A stretch of 63,136 nt of DNA, counting the filler. It is 4 parts of 4 records of this genome, joined end to end, with 100 filler letters (N's around TTAATTAATTAA, not from the genome) between each part and the next. Parts side by side here need not be neighbours in the genome. Positions count along the whole stretch, not along the records: positions 13,289 to 40,919 come from SRR20825006_2127; 3 more parts are not named here. One strand, written 5' to 3'. The notes beneath the pieces were generated by a model. The model had not been told where the DNA came from. It ran no database searches and saw only the letters and a list, made by a program, of their open reading frames with translations. Both the position numbers and the translations under genes were made by a program. Positions 13,189-58,083 of the stretch are shown here, one piece after another. Numbering within the stretch: position 1 is the stretch's first letter; every line of letters begins with the position of its first letter.

Positions 13189-13288
13189 NNNNNNNNNNNN
13201 NNNNNNNNNNNNNNNNNNNNNNNNNNNNNNNNTTAATTAATTAANNNNNNNNNNNNNNNNNNNNNNNNNNNNNNNNNNNNNNNNNNNN
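13189..13288. other. Artificial contig linker
   Basis: 44 N + TTAATTAATTAA (stops in six frames) + 44 N; abrupt GC drop across it. Confidence 0.99.
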
Positions 13289-13299
13289 AGTGTTCTCGT

Positions 13300-16764: not shown

Positions 16765-16921
16765 CTAAGCTATACGGTTTCGTGTATGCTGAATATCTGT
16801 CATATCCTTATTGGCCCTGCGAACCACGTTTGGGGCAGTTTTTTTATGCCCAAACGGCATTTTTGTTTTTCTCACGGGCATGGACTACCTTTCCCAAACC
16901 CAAAAACTAGAAACACCTACC

Positions 16922-17547
16922 ATGAACGTACGGCTTACCCAAGAACAAAAGATCAAAGTGCTCAACTCCGCGGACATATATGCGATCATGCAACAGGTTT
17001 TGCTGCGCGAGAACAAGATACGCCGCAACCAAGAGCATTTTTGGGTGGTGGGCCTCAACCACAACAACAAAATATTGTTCGTGGAGCTCATTGGCCTGGG
17101 GGCCAGCAACCGGGTGAACGCCGACCCGCCCGATGTGTTTAGGATGGCGATCTACAAACTGGCCAGCAAGCTGATCTTGGTGCACAACCACCCCAGCGGC
17201 ACGCACGAGGTTACCGATGCCGATATTACCTTTACCGACCATATGCTAAAAGTGGGCAAACTGATAAAAGTGGAAGTGCTGGACCATTTGGTGATCACCG
17301 AAACGAATTATACCAGTTTTGCCGACCAAGGCGTGATGGACGAACTACAAAAAAGCGGCCTGTTTGAAATCATGGGCCCCGAAAAGCAGGAACTGGAACA
17401 GTTTAAAATTGATACCGAGAAAAGCGGGCAGAAAAAGAAAAGGCAATCAGTATTGCAAAAAAGATGAAGGCCGATGGCTTAGATGCCGAAACTATTAAAA
17501 AGTATACCGGGTTGAGCTTGAAGGATATTGGGGGGATAAGGACCTAA
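16922..17547 (+). CDS. RadC-like JAB-domain protein with frameshifted C-terminal tail
   Basis: QEHFW and HNHPSG...D...T, LDHLVI; in-frame stop at 17467, but a shifted frame continues AEKEKAISIAKKMKADGLDAETIKKYTGLS to stop 17547. Confidence 0.85.
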
Positions 17548-17577
17548 AAATAAGTTAACCTTAAAATAGTCGCCTGT

Positions 17578-20211
17578 TTAATTTGATTCTAATTTCACTC
17601 CTATTTTGCCCGCTAAGCGTATTGCATGAACATGATTCGGGTCTTTCTCAATAATAAATTGAACCAATTTTCTAGCCTCATTTATTTTTTTAATATGAAC
17701 ATAAATCCAAGCAAGTTTCGTTCGGTCATCTAAGTTGTTATCATCTTGAACTATATAATCGTTAAGAATTGTTATTAATCTTCGAGATAGAGCTTTTTTT
17801 TCATCTTCTTTGGAATCTAAACTTCCATTACTTAATAATTGATTTAGTCTAGTCGCACAAGCACTTATTGCTGCTCCAGATACATTGTCAATTGCACACA
17901 TTTCAATTAATGAATGAATTTCACCAAAGAAATCTTTTTGCTTTGCATAAAGTTTAGATAATCTTTTCCAAACTGGTATTAACTTATTATAATCTTGCTC
18001 ATTCTGAATGAATTGCTGACATGCGCCAATTGCACCATTTTTATTGTTGACCTCTTCCAATAAGGTAGCATAGATAAGCCAGGAAGTATAATGTTTTCTA
18101 CATATATATTCTAAAACAGGTTTATAAAATGAAAGCTTATGGTTCTTACCAGTTCCGATATTCTGAGCAATTTGTCTAAAGAACTTCTCAAATCTTAATG
18201 TTACACCTTCATCAACATCAACTACCTTACCTACTCCGAACATCATTAAAATTTCTCTATCCTCCATTATTTTTTGCTTTAAAGGGGATACAGCTAACTT
18301 ATTATGACCAAAAAGATATGCTGAAAGTGGTAATGAAATGAATTTGGAATTATCTTTAGTGGATGAATAAATATCTATGAACGAAAATTTATGTAATTCG
18401 TCAATTGCAGATTCTACATCCATTTTTGTATCTGAAGTAGTAGATAAAACTGCTTCTAAGGCAATTTTTGGAATAGTTGACCTCCAACTACTTAAAGTAA
18501 GAAACACTTTTTTGGCTGCATAGGACAACATTGTATATGTCCTCTCGAATAAAGCTGTTAATAACTCATCTTGAGAGGCTACAATTCGATTAATATTACC
18601 TGCCTTTCCTTCTATTGAGACAACCCCCAATAAAATTTTAGCAACATAAGGATGTCCTAATGACTCCTCATATAACATATCAACGTATTTTTTTGTAATA
18701 AGATTTGTAATACCTAATTCATCACTTACTGAATCAACCAGTTCATTAAACTCATTTTCTTCCATTCCAGAAACTGTAATTGGATAATCTGCTCTAAATT
18801 CACTAATTCTGGAAGTAATTAATATTTTATTCGGAGTACGAATGTATGTATCTAACCATACAAACATTTCAGTTGGGTTTTTAACAGTTTCAAAATTGTC
18901 AAAAACCGCTAATAAAGGAGAAATCCCTTCTTGGTAATCACTAAGGTGTTTTTCAATAAATTTTCTCGAATTAAACCCTTTAGTTTTTAAAAGGCTTTCA
19001 TCAATCAATTTAACAAATTCTTTTGCAACATCTTCAATATCCAATACTTGTGGTTGAACAGATTTTGCTCCAGACTCCAATAAATCAATATCTCTAGAAC
19101 TAAACCAAATTATTGTTTGAAACCTATCTAATGAGCATAGTCCTTCTAAAACCCTAAGTGCCATACTAGTTTTCCCAATACCACCTCTCCCAAGAAGAGT
19201 AACCATTGGATGTCTTTCATTAACTAGAATCTTTTTCAATTCGTTCTCTAGCGATGGTCTATGAATATAGATTGAATCAACTTTTGGAAGATTTGTGAAA
19301 CAATTATCAATGACAGACAATTTTCTTTTTCCTTCAGTTTCACTCACTGGTAAATCACCAGGTGGCATCAAATATTTTGAATTGTCTTTACTGTCTCTGC
19401 TCCCAGTGGAATAAGAAAGTACTTCATAACGTTTATTGCTAAACCCGCCATTAGGAAAATAAAAATCTGAGAGATCTTTATCTGACTTAATAAGTTCTAC
19501 AAAAACTGGCCTGTTCAAATATATATATACCCCATTTTCTAAATTTTGGGATTTACCAACATTAGATTTTAAAAAATTAAAGCTTGGGCTATTTTCGGAG
19601 ATTGGTTTTACATTATACTTTCCAGACAAATTTTGCGATAAATATGCCCATTCAAAATCAAAAATTGAAAAATTACCGCTTATCAATTCCAGAGACTTTT
19701 CTAAATACGGGCAAATTTGAGAACTCACTCCACTTCTTAAAGCTCCATGCCCCCTAGTTTTATTCCTTAATTGAGAAAACATAGAAAACCAATTAATTAA
19801 ATTAGTTTTTGATGGAATTTCATTGACGGCAACCCCAATGATTTTTAAACATTCATTTAACGATGAGATTGAGTCGTGTTGCCAAGTTCCAGCCTTAACT
19901 TTTTGCGTTATTTCCTTTTGGGGGTTTCTTAATTGTATATTTAAATGATGTGAAGTTGGGCCTGAAACAATTTCCAAAATCGCTTTACCCCAATCTCCGA
20001 TTCCATCCGCCCTTACTAAATGGTATGCTTGTGAATATTTGTGTTTTTTTGAATCTTCTTCAACTCCTGCTAACATTGAAGCGCATATTAATTTGGTCAG
20101 AAGTTCACCTGTATATAGTAATGCTAAAAAATAAGCGGAATCAGAATCTTCCTTTTCAATTAAGTTTTTAGCCCAAACTTGTTTTAATATTTTATTACGC
20201 TTCTGATACAT
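17578..20211 (-). CDS. STAND/NB-ARC NTPase with uncharacterised N-terminal domain and helical/TPR-like C-terminus (candidate antiphage)
   Basis: TNLP...IHR, Walker A GRGGIGKT, Walker B LLAVFDNFE, sensor ILITSR, GHPY; very AT-rich. Confidence 0.85.
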   Translation of the reverse strand: MYQKRNKILKQVWAKNLIEKEDSDSAYFLALLYTGELLTKLICASMLAGVEEDSKKHKYSQAYHLVRADGIGDWGKAILEIVSGPTSHHLNIQLRNPQKEITQKVKAGTWQHDSISSLNECLKIIGVAVNEIPSKTNLINWFSMFSQLRNKTRGHGALRSGVSSQICPYLEKSLELISGNFSIFDFEWAYLSQNLSGKYNVKPISENSPSFNFLKSNVGKSQNLENGVYIYLNRPVFVELIKSDKDLSDFYFPNGGFSNKRYEVLSYSTGSRDSKDNSKYLMPPGDLPVSETEGKRKLSVIDNCFTNLPKVDSIYIHRPSLENELKKILVNERHPMVTLLGRGGIGKTSMALRVLEGLCSLDRFQTIIWFSSRDIDLLESGAKSVQPQVLDIEDVAKEFVKLIDESLLKTKGFNSRKFIEKHLSDYQEGISPLLAVFDNFETVKNPTEMFVWLDTYIRTPNKILITSRISEFRADYPITVSGMEENEFNELVDSVSDELGITNLITKKYVDMLYEESLGHPYVAKILLGVVSIEGKAGNINRIVASQDELLTALFERTYTMLSYAAKKVFLTLSSWRSTIPKIALEAVLSTTSDTKMDVESAIDELHKFSFIDIYSSTKDNSKFISLPLSAYLFGHNKLAVSPLKQKIMEDREILMMFGVGKVVDVDEGVTLRFEKFFRQIAQNIGTGKNHKLSFYKPVLEYICRKHYTSWLIYATLLEEVNNKNGAIGACQQFIQNEQDYNKLIPVWKRLSKLYAKQKDFFGEIHSLIEMCAIDNVSGAAISACATRLNQLLSNGSLDSKEDEKKALSRRLITILNDYIVQDDNNLDDRTKLAWIYVHIKKINEARKLVQFIIEKDPNHVHAIRLAGKIGVKLESN

Positions 20212-20323
20212 CTATCAAAAATTATTTGATAGAAATTTAACAAGAATTCAATTACCTAATATGAGCTACATAAAAAAACTATTAAGTTTTATTCAACAAT
20301 ATTATTAAATAGTAAAATTGATT

Positions 20324-20701
20324 TTAAAAATAAAGTAAAAATATCACCCTTCCAAGAAGCTCTTCTCCCATTTCAGGCTTCAATCCATAATCCTGTAGGC
20401 TGCCCACAGGGTTTTTAAAGCTCAGTTGGGTGGTTTGGGCATCAATTTCTTGTAGTACCAGTTTTAAGGGGATATCGTTTATGGCCAAAGGGTCGTTCGC
20501 CATAATTTCCGCAATGTATTTGGGGTGGAAAAAGAGCAATTGCCGCAAGTGCGGTATGTACACGCCATGCTTCGCCACAATGGCCTGGGTGTCTATCTCG
20601 TGGAGGAGCAAAAAGCCATGGTCTACAATGCGTTTTTTCAGGGCGCCGTACAATTGCCCAAAGGGCAGCGGCAGGGTATGGTGGATCACATGGGCTTTCA
20701 T
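20324..20701 (-). CDS. DUF302-family protein
   Basis: GFLLLHEIDTQ, LLFFHP, DIPLKLV; start 20701 just downstream of AraC gene. Confidence 0.75.
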   Translation of the reverse strand: MKAHVIHHTLPLPFGQLYGALKKRIVDHGFLLLHEIDTQAIVAKHGVYIPHLRQLLFFHPKYIAEIMANDPLAINDIPLKLVLQEIDAQTTQLSFKNPVGSLQDYGLKPEMGEELLGRVIFLLYF

Positions 20702-20711
20702 CTGGGATCCA

Positions 20712-21596
20712 TTAGGCCATGGCGGCACGGGCAAAGCCCACCGTTTCGCGATAGGTTTTGGGCGAAATGTCCGCATTGTTCTTAAAAAAGCGGCTAAAAT
20801 AGTGCTCATCGTCATACCCAAGGTCGTAGGCAATCTCCTTTACCGTTTTGTTGGTGAGGTACAGCTCGCGCTTGGCCTCAATAATGATCCGTTCGCTGAT
20901 CAGGTGGGTCATCGTCTTGTTAAAATGGTTTTTGGTCATCTTGGCGAGGGCCTTGGGGCTGATGTTCAGCAAATCGGCATACTCCCCCGCGGAGTGCTTG
21001 GATTTGTAGTGGGTCTCTATCAGGTTTTTGAGCTTTTGGAGGATAAACGGTTCCTTCTCGTCCGGGGTGCCCTCCAAGGCTTCGGGCTGTTGCTTGGCCT
21101 TGGCACGGGAGGCTGTGATCAAAAATATTTTAAGGTAGGAGACCAACAGCTCGTACTGCGCCAGCTCCGATTTTTGCACTTCGGTGTACATCTGCTCCAG
21201 AACCAACTCAAACTGTTGGGACATGCTCTCCGTAACGCAAAGCGTGGGCGGACTGTAAATATTGTTGAAGAGCACCCCGTTGCAGGCCACCTGTTCGTGG
21301 TGCTTGTGGATGCAGAAAAAATCGGGGTGAAACTGCAACACCACACCCTCCAACGGTTCTTCCTCAGTTAGGGCAAAAGGCTGATAGGGCGTTACGGCAA
21401 TTAGGGTGTTTGGCGTAAACGCGTACTCCGAAAAGTCCACTTGGGCGGTGCCCCTCCCCTTTTTTATCCAGATCAAGGAATAATGGTTCAACCGGTGCGT
21501 ATCGCAAAACTGGCAGCCATCCTCAAATTCGGAGAGTTTAAAGGCCAGGTTTCCGGTCTGTTCGTCGATGAGCGTGTTGGTGTTGTAAATATCCAT
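20712..21596 (-). CDS. AraC-family transcriptional regulator (Bacteroidetes type)
   Basis: YADLLNIS, RIIIEAKRELY, KEIAYDLGYDD.HYFSRFFK. Confidence 0.93.
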   Translation of the reverse strand: MDIYNTNTLIDEQTGNLAFKLSEFEDGCQFCDTHRLNHYSLIWIKKGRGTAQVDFSEYAFTPNTLIAVTPYQPFALTEEEPLEGVVLQFHPDFFCIHKHHEQVACNGVLFNNIYSPPTLCVTESMSQQFELVLEQMYTEVQKSELAQYELLVSYLKIFLITASRAKAKQQPEALEGTPDEKEPFILQKLKNLIETHYKSKHSAGEYADLLNISPKALAKMTKNHFNKTMTHLISERIIIEAKRELYLTNKTVKEIAYDLGYDDEHYFSRFFKNNADISPKTYRETVGFARAAMA

Positions 21597-36854: not shown

Positions 36855-36980
36855 TTTAACTCAATTGTATGGTATTCATCAAACATGAATCAAAAGTAAA
36901 CAAAGTGGAGTGTTTTTACTAAACGGGTGGCACTCAAAAGACACTTCAAAATCCTATATTTGCCTTGCTATTTGAGAAAG

Positions 36981-39152
36981 ATGCGAAACATTCACCCCAA
37001 AACACTTCAAGACCTAGAGTTTCCAACCGTATTGACGCAGATTGCTGCTCGATGCAATACGGAGCTGGGAAAGGAAAAGGCATTGTCCATTGAACCATAC
37101 CGCCACAAAGATGAGTTGATGGATGTTTTGGGACAGACTTCGGAATATTTGGCTTCGTTTTCCAACGATAACCGTATTCCCAATCACGGTTTCGACCACA
37201 TCAATAGTGAACTGGGACTGCTCAAAATTGACAACAGCACTTTGGAAATTAGCGGTTTTCGCAAAATTGGCGGCATTTGTAAGACTGTTGCCATTCACCA
37301 TAAATTCTTCAAAAAGTTTAAGGAGTATTATCCCTTACTTTTTAATAAAGTGGATGCTTTGGAGCTACATCCTGAAATTCCCGATGCCATTGATGATGTT
37401 ATCGATAAGTTTGGGGAAATCAAGGATTCCGCGTCGGATGAACTTCGGTACATCAGGAGTCAAATCAATGAGGTGCGCAGCAAGATAAACCAGAGCTTTA
37501 GTGCTGCATTGGGGCGTTATCAATCGTCCGATTTTTTGGATGAAATCCGCGAATCCGTGGTTGAAAACCGTCGGGTTTTGGCCGTTAAGGCCATGCATCG
37601 TAAGAAAGTGAAGGGTACCGTGATGGGCACTTCCAAGACTGGAAGTATCGTATACATTGTGCCAGAAGCTACGCTGGCCTACACCAGGGAGTTGAGCAAT
37701 CTGGAATTTGACGAGAAAGAAGAGGTACAACGTATCCTAAACAAGTTGACGGACAAAATCCGCCCTTACCTGGAATTGCTAAAAGACTATCAATCCTATC
37801 TTTCAGAAACCGATATTACGGCAGCAAAAGCACGCTATGCCAACGATATGAACGGCATATTGCCAGAAATCAATGATGAGCGTGAGATGTTTCTCCGAGA
37901 TGCCTTTCACCCCCTGCTCTATTTATCCAACAAGCGAAAGAACGAAAAGACGTGGCCACAGACCATAAAACTGCATAAGGAAAACCGGATAATTGTGATT
38001 TCGGGACCCAATGCAGGGGGTAAAAGTATTACCCTAAAAACAATTGGACTGCTTCAAGTGATGCTTCAAAGTGGTTTGTTGATTCCCGTGCACGAGCGTA
38101 GTTCCGTTTGCTTTTTTGATAAGATTTTGACGGATATTGGGGACAATCAATCCATTGAAAATCATTTAAGTACGTATAGTTATCGGTTAAAGAACATGAA
38201 CCACTTCCTTAAAAAGTGCAACGACAAAACATTGTTCTTAATTGATGAGTTTGGAACGGGAAGTGACCCCGAATTGGGCGGCGCCCTGGCCGAAGCTTTC
38301 TTGGAAGTGTTCTACGAGCGTGAGGCTTATGGAGTCATCACAACGCACTATGCCAATTTAAAGGCGCTGGCCAACGAATTGCCACATGCCACCAACGCGA
38401 ACATGCTGTTCAATTCCAAAACGCTGGAACCTACCTTTCAATTGGTTTTGGGGGAAGCGGGAAGTTCCTTTACGTTTGAGGTCGCCCAAAAGAACGGCAT
38501 CCCCTACTCCTTGATCAATAAGGCCAAGAAAAAGATTGAACGTGGAAAGGTCCGTTTTGACGCCACGATTGCCAAGCTGCAAAAAGAGCGCAGCAAAATG
38601 GTGGAGACCGGCTCCAAACTTAAAGAAGAAGAAAATAAGGCCCGTGAGGAAAATGAACGTTTGGAACAACTGAATTCCAAGATCAAATCCAAACTGGAGA
38701 GCTACCAAGAGATGTACGACCACAACCAGCGTATGATTCAATTGGGCAACAAGGTGAATACCGCTGCGGAAAAATACTTCATGGACAAGAAAAAGCGTCC
38801 TTTGATCTCCGAGATGCTCCGTATTGTGGAAACCGAGAACAGCAAGCGCAAAAAGACCACCGCCAAAAAGGCCAAGGCCAAACAGGAAGAAAAGAAACAA
38901 GTGGCCCAAGAGCTGGAGCAGAAAATCAAGAAGGTACGGGTCGAGAAAAAAATCCAAAAGAAAAAGGAAATCCAGGCCGAAAAGAACAAACCCAGGCCTG
39001 TTTTTAAGATTGGTGACCGTGTCCGTTTGATGGATGGTAAGGCCGTGGGCAGCATCGATACGCTGGAAAAAGGCAAAGCGGTGGTCAACTACGGGATGTT
39101 CACCACCAATGTGAGTGTGGACCAGTTGGAATTGGTGGAGGCAAAAAAGTAA
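36981..39152 (+). CDS. mutS2: MutS2-family protein lacking a C-terminal Smr domain
   Basis: ISGPNAGGKS, DIGDNQSIE, LIDEFGTGSDP, TTHY, coiled coil, KOW-like end. Confidence 0.92.
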   Translation: MRNIHPKTLQDLEFPTVLTQIAARCNTELGKEKALSIEPYRHKDELMDVLGQTSEYLASFSNDNRIPNHGFDHINSELGLLKIDNSTLEISGFRKIGGICKTVAIHHKFFKKFKEYYPLLFNKVDALELHPEIPDAIDDVIDKFGEIKDSASDELRYIRSQINEVRSKINQSFSAALGRYQSSDFLDEIRESVVENRRVLAVKAMHRKKVKGTVMGTSKTGSIVYIVPEATLAYTRELSNLEFDEKEEVQRILNKLTDKIRPYLELLKDYQSYLSETDITAAKARYANDMNGILPEINDEREMFLRDAFHPLLYLSNKRKNEKTWPQTIKLHKENRIIVISGPNAGGKSITLKTIGLLQVMLQSGLLIPVHERSSVCFFDKILTDIGDNQSIENHLSTYSYRLKNMNHFLKKCNDKTLFLIDEFGTGSDPELGGALAEAFLEVFYEREAYGVITTHYANLKALANELPHATNANMLFNSKTLEPTFQLVLGEAGSSFTFEVAQKNGIPYSLINKAKKKIERGKVRFDATIAKLQKERSKMVETGSKLKEEENKAREENERLEQLNSKIKSKLESYQEMYDHNQRMIQLGNKVNTAAEKYFMDKKKRPLISEMLRIVETENSKRKKTTAKKAKAKQEEKKQVAQELEQKIKKVRVEKKIQKKKEIQAEKNKPRPVFKIGDRVRLMDGKAVGSIDTLEKGKAVVNYGMFTTNVSVDQLELVEAKK

Positions 39153-39158
39153 TCCGAT

Positions 39159-39241
39159 TGTCATTTCGAAATAAGGAGGGCACCGACGATTGAGAAATCT
39201 CTTTGCAATCTTCAGATTTCTCACATTCGTTCGAAATGACA
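39159..39241. repeat. REP/MITE-like palindrome
   Basis: TGTCATTTCGAA / TTCGAAATGACA outer arms with inner TGAGAAATCT / AGATTTCTCA. Confidence 0.7.
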
Positions 39242-39383
39242 CGCTGCCATCATTTTTAGTGTTGACAACTCCTCATAAGTCAACCACTTAACCTATTGTT
39301 TGTCAGGGTTTTTTCAGCGAACTTCGTTATCGGTTGATATAAATCATTGAAACGAAGCATCTTTATAACATTAGCGTTGATTT

Positions 39384-40178
39384 ATGACAAAAGACAAATT
39401 TCAAAAAGAAGAATTAGATAAAATTGTCGTTTCCTTTATCAAACTGACAAAATTTGTAATTCTAGTTTTTGAAAATAATACATCTGGAACTAAGGAAAAT
39501 ATTAGAAGAAATTTTATAGCAAAGTCTAATTCTTTATTAAATAGTATTTCAATACTTATCTCCGCAAATCAAGAAGGCGAAGCAATGGCATTATATAGAA
39601 TGTTGATTGAAAGATATTTTTATTTAGAATATTTAGAAAAGAAGGACAAATATCAAGAATTTAAAGATTGGTCATATATCAAGACATACGAGTCTAGAAA
39701 TAACGCTAGAAGTAATTCAGAATTCAATGATTCTACCACGAAGAAATATCTAAAAGATAGCCCTGAACAAGTAAAAAAATATCAAAAACTAAAATTGGAA
39801 AAAATTGATTGGGTTGAACCAAAATTAGAAGATTTCGCTAAAGAATTAAATTTAACATTCTTATATAAGTTGGGATATGATTTGGGCTCTTCCTTTATTC
39901 ATCCAAGAGCAGATGAAGGTTATTCGGATGCGTTAAGGTTAGTAAGCAAAAATCCAACACCAGAATTTAGAAAATTAAATATCTTGAAAAATTCAATATT
40001 AATAGCCAATTCAATATTGATGTATTCTTGTAATTATTCAGAACATAATTTTGGAAAATATTTGAATTTATATTGCAATGTAATTTTTGGATTCTTGAAT
40101 GAAGGACAAAATCTTCCTAACCTTGAAGATATTGAGAAAATATTTTTTGCAAGTCAAATGAAAGATTTAGAAGCATAA
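39384..40178 (+). CDS. AT-rich all-helical protein, DUF5677/HEPN-like
   Basis: L.R.LIE...YL.YL and Y..GS.FIHP motifs; low GC relative to flanks. Confidence 0.6.
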   Translation: MTKDKFQKEELDKIVVSFIKLTKFVILVFENNTSGTKENIRRNFIAKSNSLLNSISILISANQEGEAMALYRMLIERYFYLEYLEKKDKYQEFKDWSYIKTYESRNNARSNSEFNDSTTKKYLKDSPEQVKKYQKLKLEKIDWVEPKLEDFAKELNLTFLYKLGYDLGSSFIHPRADEGYSDALRLVSKNPTPEFRKLNILKNSILIANSILMYSCNYSEHNFGKYLNLYCNVIFGFLNEGQNLPNLEDIEKIFFASQMKDLEA

Positions 40179-57751: not shown

Positions 57752-57851
57752 NNNNNNNNNNNNNNNNNNNNNNNNNNNNNNNNNNNNNNNNNNNNTTAAT
57801 TAATTAANNNNNNNNNNNNNNNNNNNNNNNNNNNNNNNNNNNNNNNNNNNN
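57752..57851. other. Artificial contig linker
   Basis: N44-TTAATTAATTAA-N44; GC jumps sharply. Confidence 0.99.
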
Positions 57852-58083
57852 GGAATTCGTCGACGATGTCGGTGAACAGCGGCTTGTCGCGCAGGAACTC
57901 GGTCGACAGGCCGTGCACCCGGAACGCCTCGTCGGGCACGTCGCGCATCGGGTTGATGTAGACGTGATAGTGATTGCCGGACGGGATGTGGTTGATCAGC
58001 TCGACGGCACCGATCTCGACCAGCCGGTCGCCGGTCTTCGGGCTCAGGCCCGTCGTTTCCGTATCAAGAACGATCTCGCGCAT
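57852..58083 (-). CDS. dnaQ: DNA polymerase III epsilon subunit, truncated by contig end
   Basis: [13 protein letters not shown]...DRLVEIG...YINP...VHG. Confidence 0.95.

Follow-up and report, generated by a model that had tools for sequence, protein, structure and literature searches.

A probable NLR-like anti-phage STAND protein with a candidate HEPN-type effector, encoded in a strain-variable slot of a flavobacterial contig

The present analysis concerns a stretch of DNA of 63,136 nucleotides (nt), hereafter the window, and a gene in its flavobacterial part which encodes a STAND-type nucleoside triphosphatase (NTPase; the STAND gene, product P0001). The gene is interpreted as encoding a single-protein, NLR-like (Avs-like) anti-phage STAND sensor with a HEPN-type RNase effector that would act through abortive infection, and this reading is assigned a probability of about 0.55. 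A role in defence as such is judged likely, and the assignment of the effector as a HEPN-type RNase stands at little better than even odds. The open reading frame (ORF) is real and lies far beyond chance, since its 877 codons remain open at 31 % GC and more than 1000 relatives of full length exist. The predicted protein consists of an N-terminal module, an NB-ARC/Apaf-1-type STAND NTPase and a short, fast-evolving TPR-like solenoid.

This architecture is drawn from two alignments, comprising 32 (A1) and 70 (A2) sequences, and from two structural models. The N-terminal 300 amino acids (aa) were modelled from the 70-sequence alignment (predicted local distance difference test, pLDDT, 94.6; predicted template modelling score, pTM, 0.92) and the full-length protein from 32 sequences (pLDDT 85.5; pTM 0.56). 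The two models concur on a helical bundle (aa 7–185), a beta subdomain (aa 188–276) and a disordered linker (aa 285–295), followed by an alpha/beta nucleotide-binding domain (NBD; aa 316–480), an ARC and winged helix region (aa 485–640) and a twelve-helix solenoid (aa 645–870). An earlier note, made on this DNA from its letters alone, had described the N-terminal region as helical over about 290 aa, which is correct for aa 7–185 but not for the beta subdomain and disordered linker that follow. Foldseek searches with the full model retrieved the STAND-TPR protein 6mfv (E 3e-12), Apaf-1 (9e-10) and CED-4 (5e-9), with further matches to the plant NLRs NRC2 and ZAR1, SAMD9, NOD2, AVAST5 (9nc9), MalT and Avs3 (8dgc, E 1e-6), and the full-length model likewise has the NBD followed by ARC and winged helix domains in the manner of Apaf-1 and CED-4. 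The best Pfam match of the protein was NB-ARC (NACHT E 0.076), and PF00931 is precomputed for many relatives, while comparison against NCBIfam gave chance-level matches only. The family profile matches consensus TPR proteins at positions 684–768 (E 3e-7); the Pfam TPR matches of the protein itself are sub-threshold, and TPR families are annotated on relatives. For the beta subdomain, a PDB sequence profile search gave similarity to CRP-type beta rolls at chance level only (E 0.23).

The Walker A, Walker B, sensor-1, GHPY and LRNKTRGHG motifs were read from the translation and are invariant in A1, with Walker A kept in all 231 full-length members. The intact NTPase motifs and the effector-STAND-repeat architecture reported in the earlier note are thus both upheld, the latter by the models, the Foldseek matches and the TPR profile match. 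Mean pairwise identity differs among the regions (N-terminal helical 0.43, N-terminal beta 0.49, NBD 0.57, ARC/winged helix 0.53, solenoid 0.33), and the solenoid, as the least conserved region, displays the pattern expected of a diversifying sensor. A further motif, LPxSETEG (aa 287–294; 19330–19353), is situated in the linker that joins the N-terminal module to the NTPase; its residues L287, P288, S290 and T292 are invariant in both A1 and A2. The surrounding residues (aa 285–295) have a pLDDT below 50 in the full-length model, and the motif may represent a docking, cleavage or modification site.

The proposed nature of the effector is based principally on the LRNKTRGHG motif, which has R149, N150, H155 and G156 in all 32 sequences of A1 and all 70 of A2. 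An RN-x(3-5)-H motif occurs at the expected distance from Walker A in 230 of the 231 full-length members, with the spacing Rx5H in 224, Rx4H in five and Rx6H in one, while a single member has the histidine replaced by arginine. Drift in spacing therefore appears to be confined to the four to six residues of the HEPN range. In the model of the N-terminal domain the motif stands at the end of a helix (aa 139–153), with H155 in the ensuing loop and a second helix at aa 160–180, a layout of helix end, loop and helix that resembles the HepT and Abi_2 sequences which were retrieved for comparison. HEPN entries were strongly over-represented among the best fold matches, with nearly the whole of the target domains covered, and HEPN domains occur in Roquin, LsoA, Csm6, HepS and AbiA. 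The structures 1wwp, 1jog and 1ylm are classed as HEPN in the portions of PMC3710099 that were available. Matches in the ESM Atlas, taken as leads only, included stand-alone clusters of 223, 171 and 331 aa without a Pfam family, a 137-aa cluster with a HEPN share of 15 % (template modelling score, TM, 0.42/0.53) and a cluster with 11 % RnlA-toxin_DBD which scored 0.76. Further invariant residues of the N-terminal domain in A2 are E36, K40, W110, W188, N254 and G255. A search with the N-terminal domain profile gave 259 matches, of which the 120 best were all fragments or truncations of the same STAND family, with no stand-alone or differently fused form among them. Pfam comparison of five longer relatives revealed no additional effector; one of these (P0239) carries transposase-like helix-turn-helix (HTH) domains and is probably a gene-call fusion.

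The protein belongs to a large family which is conserved over its full length and which, N-terminal domain included, is named by neither PADLOC nor Pfam. In a word-indexed search 8000 candidates were scored, of which 1296 reached E≤1e-3, and the best 120 of these are nearly all 851–894 aa in length, with 96–100 % query cover and 41–78 % identity. Exhaustive searching of representatives clustered at 50 % identity yielded 2269 proteins at E≤1e-3, of which 923 also passed E≤1e-10 and 490 passed E≤1e-30; the 150 representatives listed are mostly full-length (nearly all 850–890 aa), and the remainder are shorter fragments. Among species-representative genomes 304 relatives were found, the best 80 loci of which occur in more than ten phyla, including the Bacteroidota, Acidobacteriota, Planctomycetota, Verrucomicrobiota, Chloroflexota, Myxococcota, Pseudomonadota, Actinomycetota, Gemmatimonadota and Patescibacteria. 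In a FastTree phylogeny of 75 full-length proteins the phyla are intermixed within strongly supported clades, with the protein from the window falling in a Flavobacteriaceae subclade. Full-length copies at 38.6 % identity are also present on seven megaplasmids of Ralstonia (Ralstonia solanacearum; L113, H6/H7), where the match carries no annotation in PLSDB; in two of these megaplasmid records it is broken into two segments spread over 3468 bp rather than 2601 bp, pointing to interruption of the copy. Comparison against PADLOC-DB v2.0.0 gave no family at E≤1, in keeping with the earlier statement that no named system could be assigned, and no paper naming the family was found in literature word searches, which cannot find a family by sequence.

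The STAND gene sits in a strain-variable hotspot, the other occupants of which are mostly of defence type. For comparison of the slot between the RadC-JAB gene and the DUF302 gene, 31 related genomes were considered, and 19 genomes of the same genus were searched. The radC flank is kept in nine of the same-genus genomes (82–91 % nt identity) and the DUF302/AraC flank in eight (83–88 %), while the 2.8 kb between them matches only the genome identical to the window; the STAND gene was found in 1/19 same-genus genomes. In six genomes both flanks are located on one contig, and all six carry other cargo (2.7–5.2 kb; 26–37 % GC), with differing cargo between conserved flanks marking the locus as a strain-variable hotspot. 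Two genomes have KAP-family NTPases (1089 aa and 643 aa) in the slot. Of the others, one pairs an N6/N4 DNA methylase and a double-GHKL ATPase, one combines a C5 methylase (DrmMII model, 3e-176), a GHKL ATPase and a 368-aa protein, one carries a PDC-S06/AAA_13 protein (1e-166) together with a PD-(D/E)XK-like protein, and the last has two proteins without an identified family; the cargo is of defence type in 5/6 sister genomes. No direct repeats were found flanking the slot. The radC gene, cited in the earlier note as a frequent marker of mobile or defence islands, is here a conserved border of the slot and neither travels with the STAND gene as a marker nor forms part of the cargo. The STAND gene is indeed a stand-alone gene convergent with radC, as described in the earlier note, but the term AT-rich is valid only against its own contig: the flanking sequence at 60–70 % GC belongs to other contigs, and AT-richness can thus be judged inside contig B (13290–57772) only. 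There, GC ranges between 0.31 and 0.33 in each 500-nt window from 17500 to 20499, against mostly 0.37–0.50 in the contig. Among the slot loci (L087–L092), the two proteins without an identified family are those of L089 (G004; 382 and 402 aa), one KAP NTPase is accompanied by an uncharacterised 497-aa partner in L091 (G017), and the uncharacterised 368-aa partner of the C5 methylase and GHKL ATPase is in L092 (G009).

The neighbourhoods of homologues point in the same direction. Two ORFs on each side were scanned with PADLOC in 74 loci (285 ORFs; one further short contig lacks neighbours), and a locus was counted when at least one neighbour matched a specific defence protein at E≤1e-20. A PADLOC-positive neighbour was observed in 23/74 homologue loci, from which generic helicase matches (L002), an HTH-only match (L066) and a cysteine-desulfurase-like SspA/DndA match (L017) were left out; with L002 and L066 counted the figure is 25/74. 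The neighbours belong most often to restriction-modification (R-M) systems, namely type I (L004, L038, L039, L050, L054, L056, L064, L073, L074), type IIG (L009, L010) and type II or its methyltransferases (L034, L061). The remainder comprise BREX PglZ and BrxL (L011), Kiwa KwaA and KwaB (L032), DISARM-like DrmMI and DpdE (L075), a DpdE/ZorD-like helicase (L070), AbiTii (L013), IetA (L017), PD-Lambda-2_B (L024), a PD-T4-6/mad6 kinase (L043), PDC-S02 (L005) and PDC-M34A/B (L079), with ThsB (L039) and PDC-S05 (L054) as additional matches. When 20 arbitrary 10-kb loci from eight Flavobacteriales genomes (79 ORFs) were treated alike, a single locus was positive, by the generic methyltransferase model mad2 (one-sided Fisher p = 0.012 against 23/74). 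The enrichment of homologues in defence islands, which had been put forward as a check, is thus borne out. No conserved partner gene was identified among 75 loci, which suggests that the protein acts as the product of a single gene, as was originally supposed.

Type I R-M genes occur within five ORFs and on the same strand in 11/75 loci. In L056 (Gemmatimonadaceae), L064 (Flavobacteriales) and L074 (Verrucomicrobiota), and thus in three phyla, the order is hsdM-hsdS-gene-hsdR, all on one strand and with junctions (gaps or overlaps) of 1–46 nt. The position between hsdS and hsdR is that of prrC in the EcoprrI locus. In L051 and L054 extra genes, such as PDC-S05, are likewise found inside the hsdS-hsdR gap. 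Nine of the eleven R-M-linked loci fall within one 21-row clade (support 100), against 2/54 elsewhere. A parsimony test of the R-M label detected no clustering, with 11 changes against a shuffled mean of 10.5 and 500/500 shuffles as low.

Proteins of this general build have been described before. The accessible text of Lee et al. (Nature 2026, PMC13581612) distinguishes 589 prokaryotic STAND clades, 198 of which are defence-associated, and names Avs7-24; the present family may already be among its unnamed clades. As in Avs1-5 and Avs7-24 of that account, one polypeptide carries an effector at its N-terminus, then the STAND NTPase, and a TPR-like sensor at its C-terminus, and defence-island context, horizontal spread and the fold matches to Avs3 and AVAST5 are shared. 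The protein differs from Avs in that it matches no PADLOC AVAST model, its effector is an unclassified domain, and its sensor of about 230 aa is shorter than the sensors of at least 400 aa which, in the same portions of PMC13581612, were clustered. Fusions of HEPN, STAND ATPase and TPR (with or without S1) were listed in 2013 by Anantharaman et al. (PMC3710099, from the part available), with Npun_F6454, MED222_16016 and Desac_1927 as examples. Compared by description only, these share the predicted class of N-terminal HEPN-type domain, STAND NTPase and TPR, but their HEPN domains were recognised through profile searches within a named HEPN group, whereas the N-terminal domain of the window protein lacks a Pfam HEPN match and an S1/OB domain. 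HEPN-STAND-TPR proteins as a class were therefore already in print, and what is new is probably an uncatalogued family with an unclassified, probably HEPN-derived effector. The bNACHT proteins, as far as the consulted section of Kibby et al. (10.1101/2022.07.19.500537) describes them, are likewise NLR-like single-gene defence proteins and include HEPN RNases among their effectors; the window NTPase differs in being of AP-ATPase/NB-ARC type, with Apaf-1, CED-4 and 6mfv as its best folds. PrrC and RloC, according to the part of PMC3710099 consulted, unite an NTPase and a nuclease of HEPN type and are located in type I R-M operons; three members of the present family are likewise placed between hsdS and hsdR. 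PrrC however uses an ABC-type ATPase and lacks a repeat sensor, the window NTPase is of STAND/NB-ARC type, and the window gene and most family members are not R-M linked. Apaf-1, CED-4, the plant NB-ARC NLRs and the archaeal 6mfv share with the window protein the NBD-ARC-winged helix core (Foldseek E 3e-12 to 1e-6) and the motifs of Walker A and B, sensor-1 and GxP, at a sequence identity of only 12–18 %. The effectors (CARD, CC or TIR as opposed to the present domain) and the sensors (WD40 or LRR as opposed to a short TPR-like solenoid) differ.

By analogy with these systems, the protein would rest as an ADP-bound, closed monomer until a protein that derives from the phage, or is induced by infection, is bound by the C-terminal TPR-like solenoid. 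The NB-ARC-type NTPase would then exchange its nucleotide and oligomerise, gathering the N-terminal modules, so that the helical subdomains with R149-N150-x4-H155 could form a composite, metal-independent RNase site of HEPN type. Cleavage of cellular and/or phage RNA by this site would stop the growth of the infected cell, resulting in abortive infection. Phage sensing, oligomerisation, RNase chemistry and the abortive outcome are inferred only, from comparison with characterised proteins. Target binding followed by oligomerisation and effector activation is described for Avs proteins in the portions of PMC13581612 and PMC13601566 that were accessible, and HEPN domains are usually ribonucleases that form dimers according to the available part of the DefensePredictor account (PMC13092281).

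Several results weigh against this interpretation. The control was small and drawn from a single order, while the homologue loci stem from many phyla, no homologues were found in 50,697 phage records, and the Pfam NB-ARC match (PF00931) of the protein (E 7.7e-4; 19.2 bits) lies below the gathering cut-off of 23.5. As regards the effector, no Pfam HEPN family matched any of the 70 N-terminal domains at E≤1, and a PDB sequence search with the N-terminal domain profile reached a best E of 0.23. Profile-to-profile comparison, which covered the two HEPN families HepT and Abi_2, was equally negative: hhalign of A2 against the HepT alignment (13 sequences) gave a probability of 0.3 % with the motif misaligned, and against the Abi_2 alignment (3 sequences) a probability of 0.13 %, where the sole local match pairs WF..F..LRN with the Abi_2 motif helix and is non-significant overall. 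The Foldseek check of the N-terminal domain suggested in the earlier note also went against it, with no match at E≤1e-3 in the PDB (best E 0.31, to FERM domains with a TM of 0.14) or in BFVD. Of the HEPN-like N-terminus claimed in that note, the invariant Rx5H motif thus stands, while Pfam and hhalign lend the assignment no significant match. These results would be explained if the protein were the same defence STAND sensor with a new effector or adaptor at its N-terminus, whether another nuclease, a nucleotide-targeting enzyme or a recruiter or activator of a cellular factor, with the RN-x-H residues serving other chemistry or binding. The helical part, with about nine helices, exceeds the minimal HEPN domain and is always fused to the conserved beta domain, many more residues than those of the motif are invariant, and the stand-alone look-alikes of 171–241 aa have no Pfam family. 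This explanation is nevertheless considered rather unlikely, as it leaves unaccounted for the heavy enrichment of HEPN entries, with near-complete domain cover, among the best fold matches, and the restriction of the R-N...H spacing to four to six residues in a helix end-loop-helix placement as in HepT and Abi_2.

The genomic context permits two further explanations, both of which are held to be less probable still. Given the eleven loci with a nearby type I R-M system, the exact placement of three copies between hsdS and hsdR, the concentration of such loci in one clade and the frequency of PrrC and RloC HEPN proteins in R-M operons (in the part of PMC3710099 consulted), the protein could be a PrrC-like R-M accessory or guard, which is silenced by the type I R-M complex and fires once that complex is disabled by a phage anti-restriction factor, with free-standing copies being orphans or acting with the host R-M system in trans. 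Against this, 64/75 loci lack nearby type I R-M genes, including the window and the whole Flavobacteriaceae subclade, the parsimony test leaves the R-M label unclustered, the other neighbours (BREX, Kiwa, DISARM, type II/IIG) show the variety of any defence island, and a TPR sensor fused to the STAND NTPase is an architecture for direct sensing, so that a guard function of the family is thought very unlikely. The least probable explanation, which we regard as doubtful in the extreme, is that of a non-immune STAND ATPase that serves in signalling or regulation, in a housekeeping or niche-specific capacity, and whose defence neighbours merely co-travel on mobile low-GC DNA. Its appeal lies in the 51/74 loci without a strong PADLOC neighbour and in the immediate neighbours of the STAND gene in the window, which are metabolic or regulatory and not defence genes. 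A non-immune role is however difficult to reconcile with the lack of a DNA-binding or other output domain, the invariant, catalytic-looking motif of the N-terminal domain, the insertion of relatives within R-M operons, the defence-type cargo of the slot in sister genomes and the patchy distribution both across phyla and within the genus. The reading as an anti-phage STAND sensor with a HEPN-type RNase is thus preferred, and the features on which it is based are listed in Table 1.

Table 1. Location of the STAND gene, its predicted parts and its flanking genes in the window
Feature	Position	Strand	Basis
Whole STAND gene, P0001	17578..20211	-	ATG start, 877 aa plus stop; full-length relatives
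N-terminal helical subdomain, aa 1-186, candidate HEPN-like effector core	19654..20211	-	Helices at aa 7-185
LRNKTRGHG, aa 148-156	19744..19770	-	R149, N150, H155, G156 invariant; fits Rx4-6H
Beta-rich subdomain, aa 187-276, no family assigned	19384..19653	-	Strands at aa 188-276 in both models
Linker, aa 277-315	19267..19383	-	Contains LPxSETEG; predicted disordered stretch
STAND nucleotide-binding domain, aa 316-480	18772..19266	-	Invariant motifs, fold matches
Walker A GRGGIGKT, aa 341-348	19168-19191	-	Invariant in A1
Walker B LAVFDNFE, aa 434-441, D438	18889-18912	-	Invariant in A1
Sensor-1 ILITSR, R468	18808-18825	-	Invariant in A1
ARC helical domain and winged helix, aa 481-644	18280..18771	-	Secondary structure, Foldseek; GHPY at aa 519-522
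C-terminal TPR-like alpha-solenoid, aa 645-877, presumed sensor	17581..18279	-	Twelve helices in model
Variable low-GC slot, occupied here by the STAND gene alone	17547..20323	.	Comparison with related genomes
RadC-JAB gene, conserved left flank	16811..17467	+	Pfam RadC E 3.6e-31
DUF302 gene and AraC-family regulator, conserved right flank	20324..21596	-	Upstream of the STAND gene

Some additional features of the gene and its surroundings were observed. A conserved, family-specific insert, SxRDIDLLxxGxKxVxP (aa 371–387; 19051–19101), follows the second strand of the NBD; R373, D374, D376, L377, G381 and V385 are invariant, and the insert is modelled with a pLDDT below 50. An imperfect palindrome, TTTGATAGA...TCTATCAAA, at 20200–20244 spans the start codon of the STAND gene, and one metatranscriptome contig has its end at 20212, a single base upstream of the ATG. 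These could reflect a leaderless mRNA, an operator or nothing at all. Scanning for promoters gave 9 promoter-like sites where 13.8 were expected, and scanning for terminators gave 0 where 1.9 were expected, neither of which is informative. The DNA of the STAND gene is nearly identical in 15 public runs. Four contigs of 232–351 nt, belonging to three marine metatranscriptome runs (two studies), fall within the gene without differences, which is a weak hint of transcription, considering that DNA can occur in such libraries. The gene and its flanks are uncovered in stretches in the RNA runs; as these are contigs, no conclusion follows. On the left flank, nt conservation of the radC region in relatives reaches to about 17538, beyond the listed RadC stop at 17467 (region 17467–17546), and the real end or frame of radC may differ from the mechanical ORF call.

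The window itself is composite. Runs of N with the TTAATTAATTAA linker at 13189–13289 and 57773–57852 are the joints between three contigs, of which contig A (1–13188; about 60 % GC) encodes KdpD/KdpE and contig C (57853–63136; about 66–71 % GC) a shikimate dehydrogenase. Contig B is flavobacterial (mostly 37–50 %, about 41 % GC), with a gene content typical of the Bacteroidota, including a protein with a type IX secretion system (T9SS) tail and a Reg_prop/Y_Y_Y kinase, and in a locus search it proved identical to and collinear with a public flavobacterial record (L001). The GC content of contigs A and C (60–71 %) against that of contig B indicates that the parent assembly or bin is of mixed origin. 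Elsewhere in contig B, at 36927–40178, a 741-aa protein with MutS domain V adjoins a DUF5677 protein, and GC falls to 33 % at 39–40 kb; no PADLOC match was found for this stretch, which may be another variable or defence-like insertion.

NLR-like STAND proteins of bacteria are now regarded as kin of eukaryotic immune receptors, and as pattern-recognition receptors whose targets are phage proteins. To these the present family, which is absent from PADLOC-DB v2.0.0, would add an effector module found in no domain library, while its compact sensor of about 230 aa means that ligand mapping could be easy. In its boldest form, which is considered improbable, the proposal would be of a widespread Avs-like family (at least 490 clusters at 50 % identity) whose effector is an unclassified HEPN-derived RNase, with a helical core and an obligatory beta domain and occurring also as a stand-alone protein of about 220 aa, and of which one clade, large and horizontally mobile and situated between hsdS and hsdR, serves as a second-line guard of type I R-M systems that fires on phage anti-restriction, as a STAND-based analogue of PrrC. 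The recurrent hsdS-hsdR insertion in that clade makes layered immunity, combining R-M with abortive infection, directly testable, and the radC-DUF302 slot constitutes a discovery site for unknown defence genes in marine flavobacteria.

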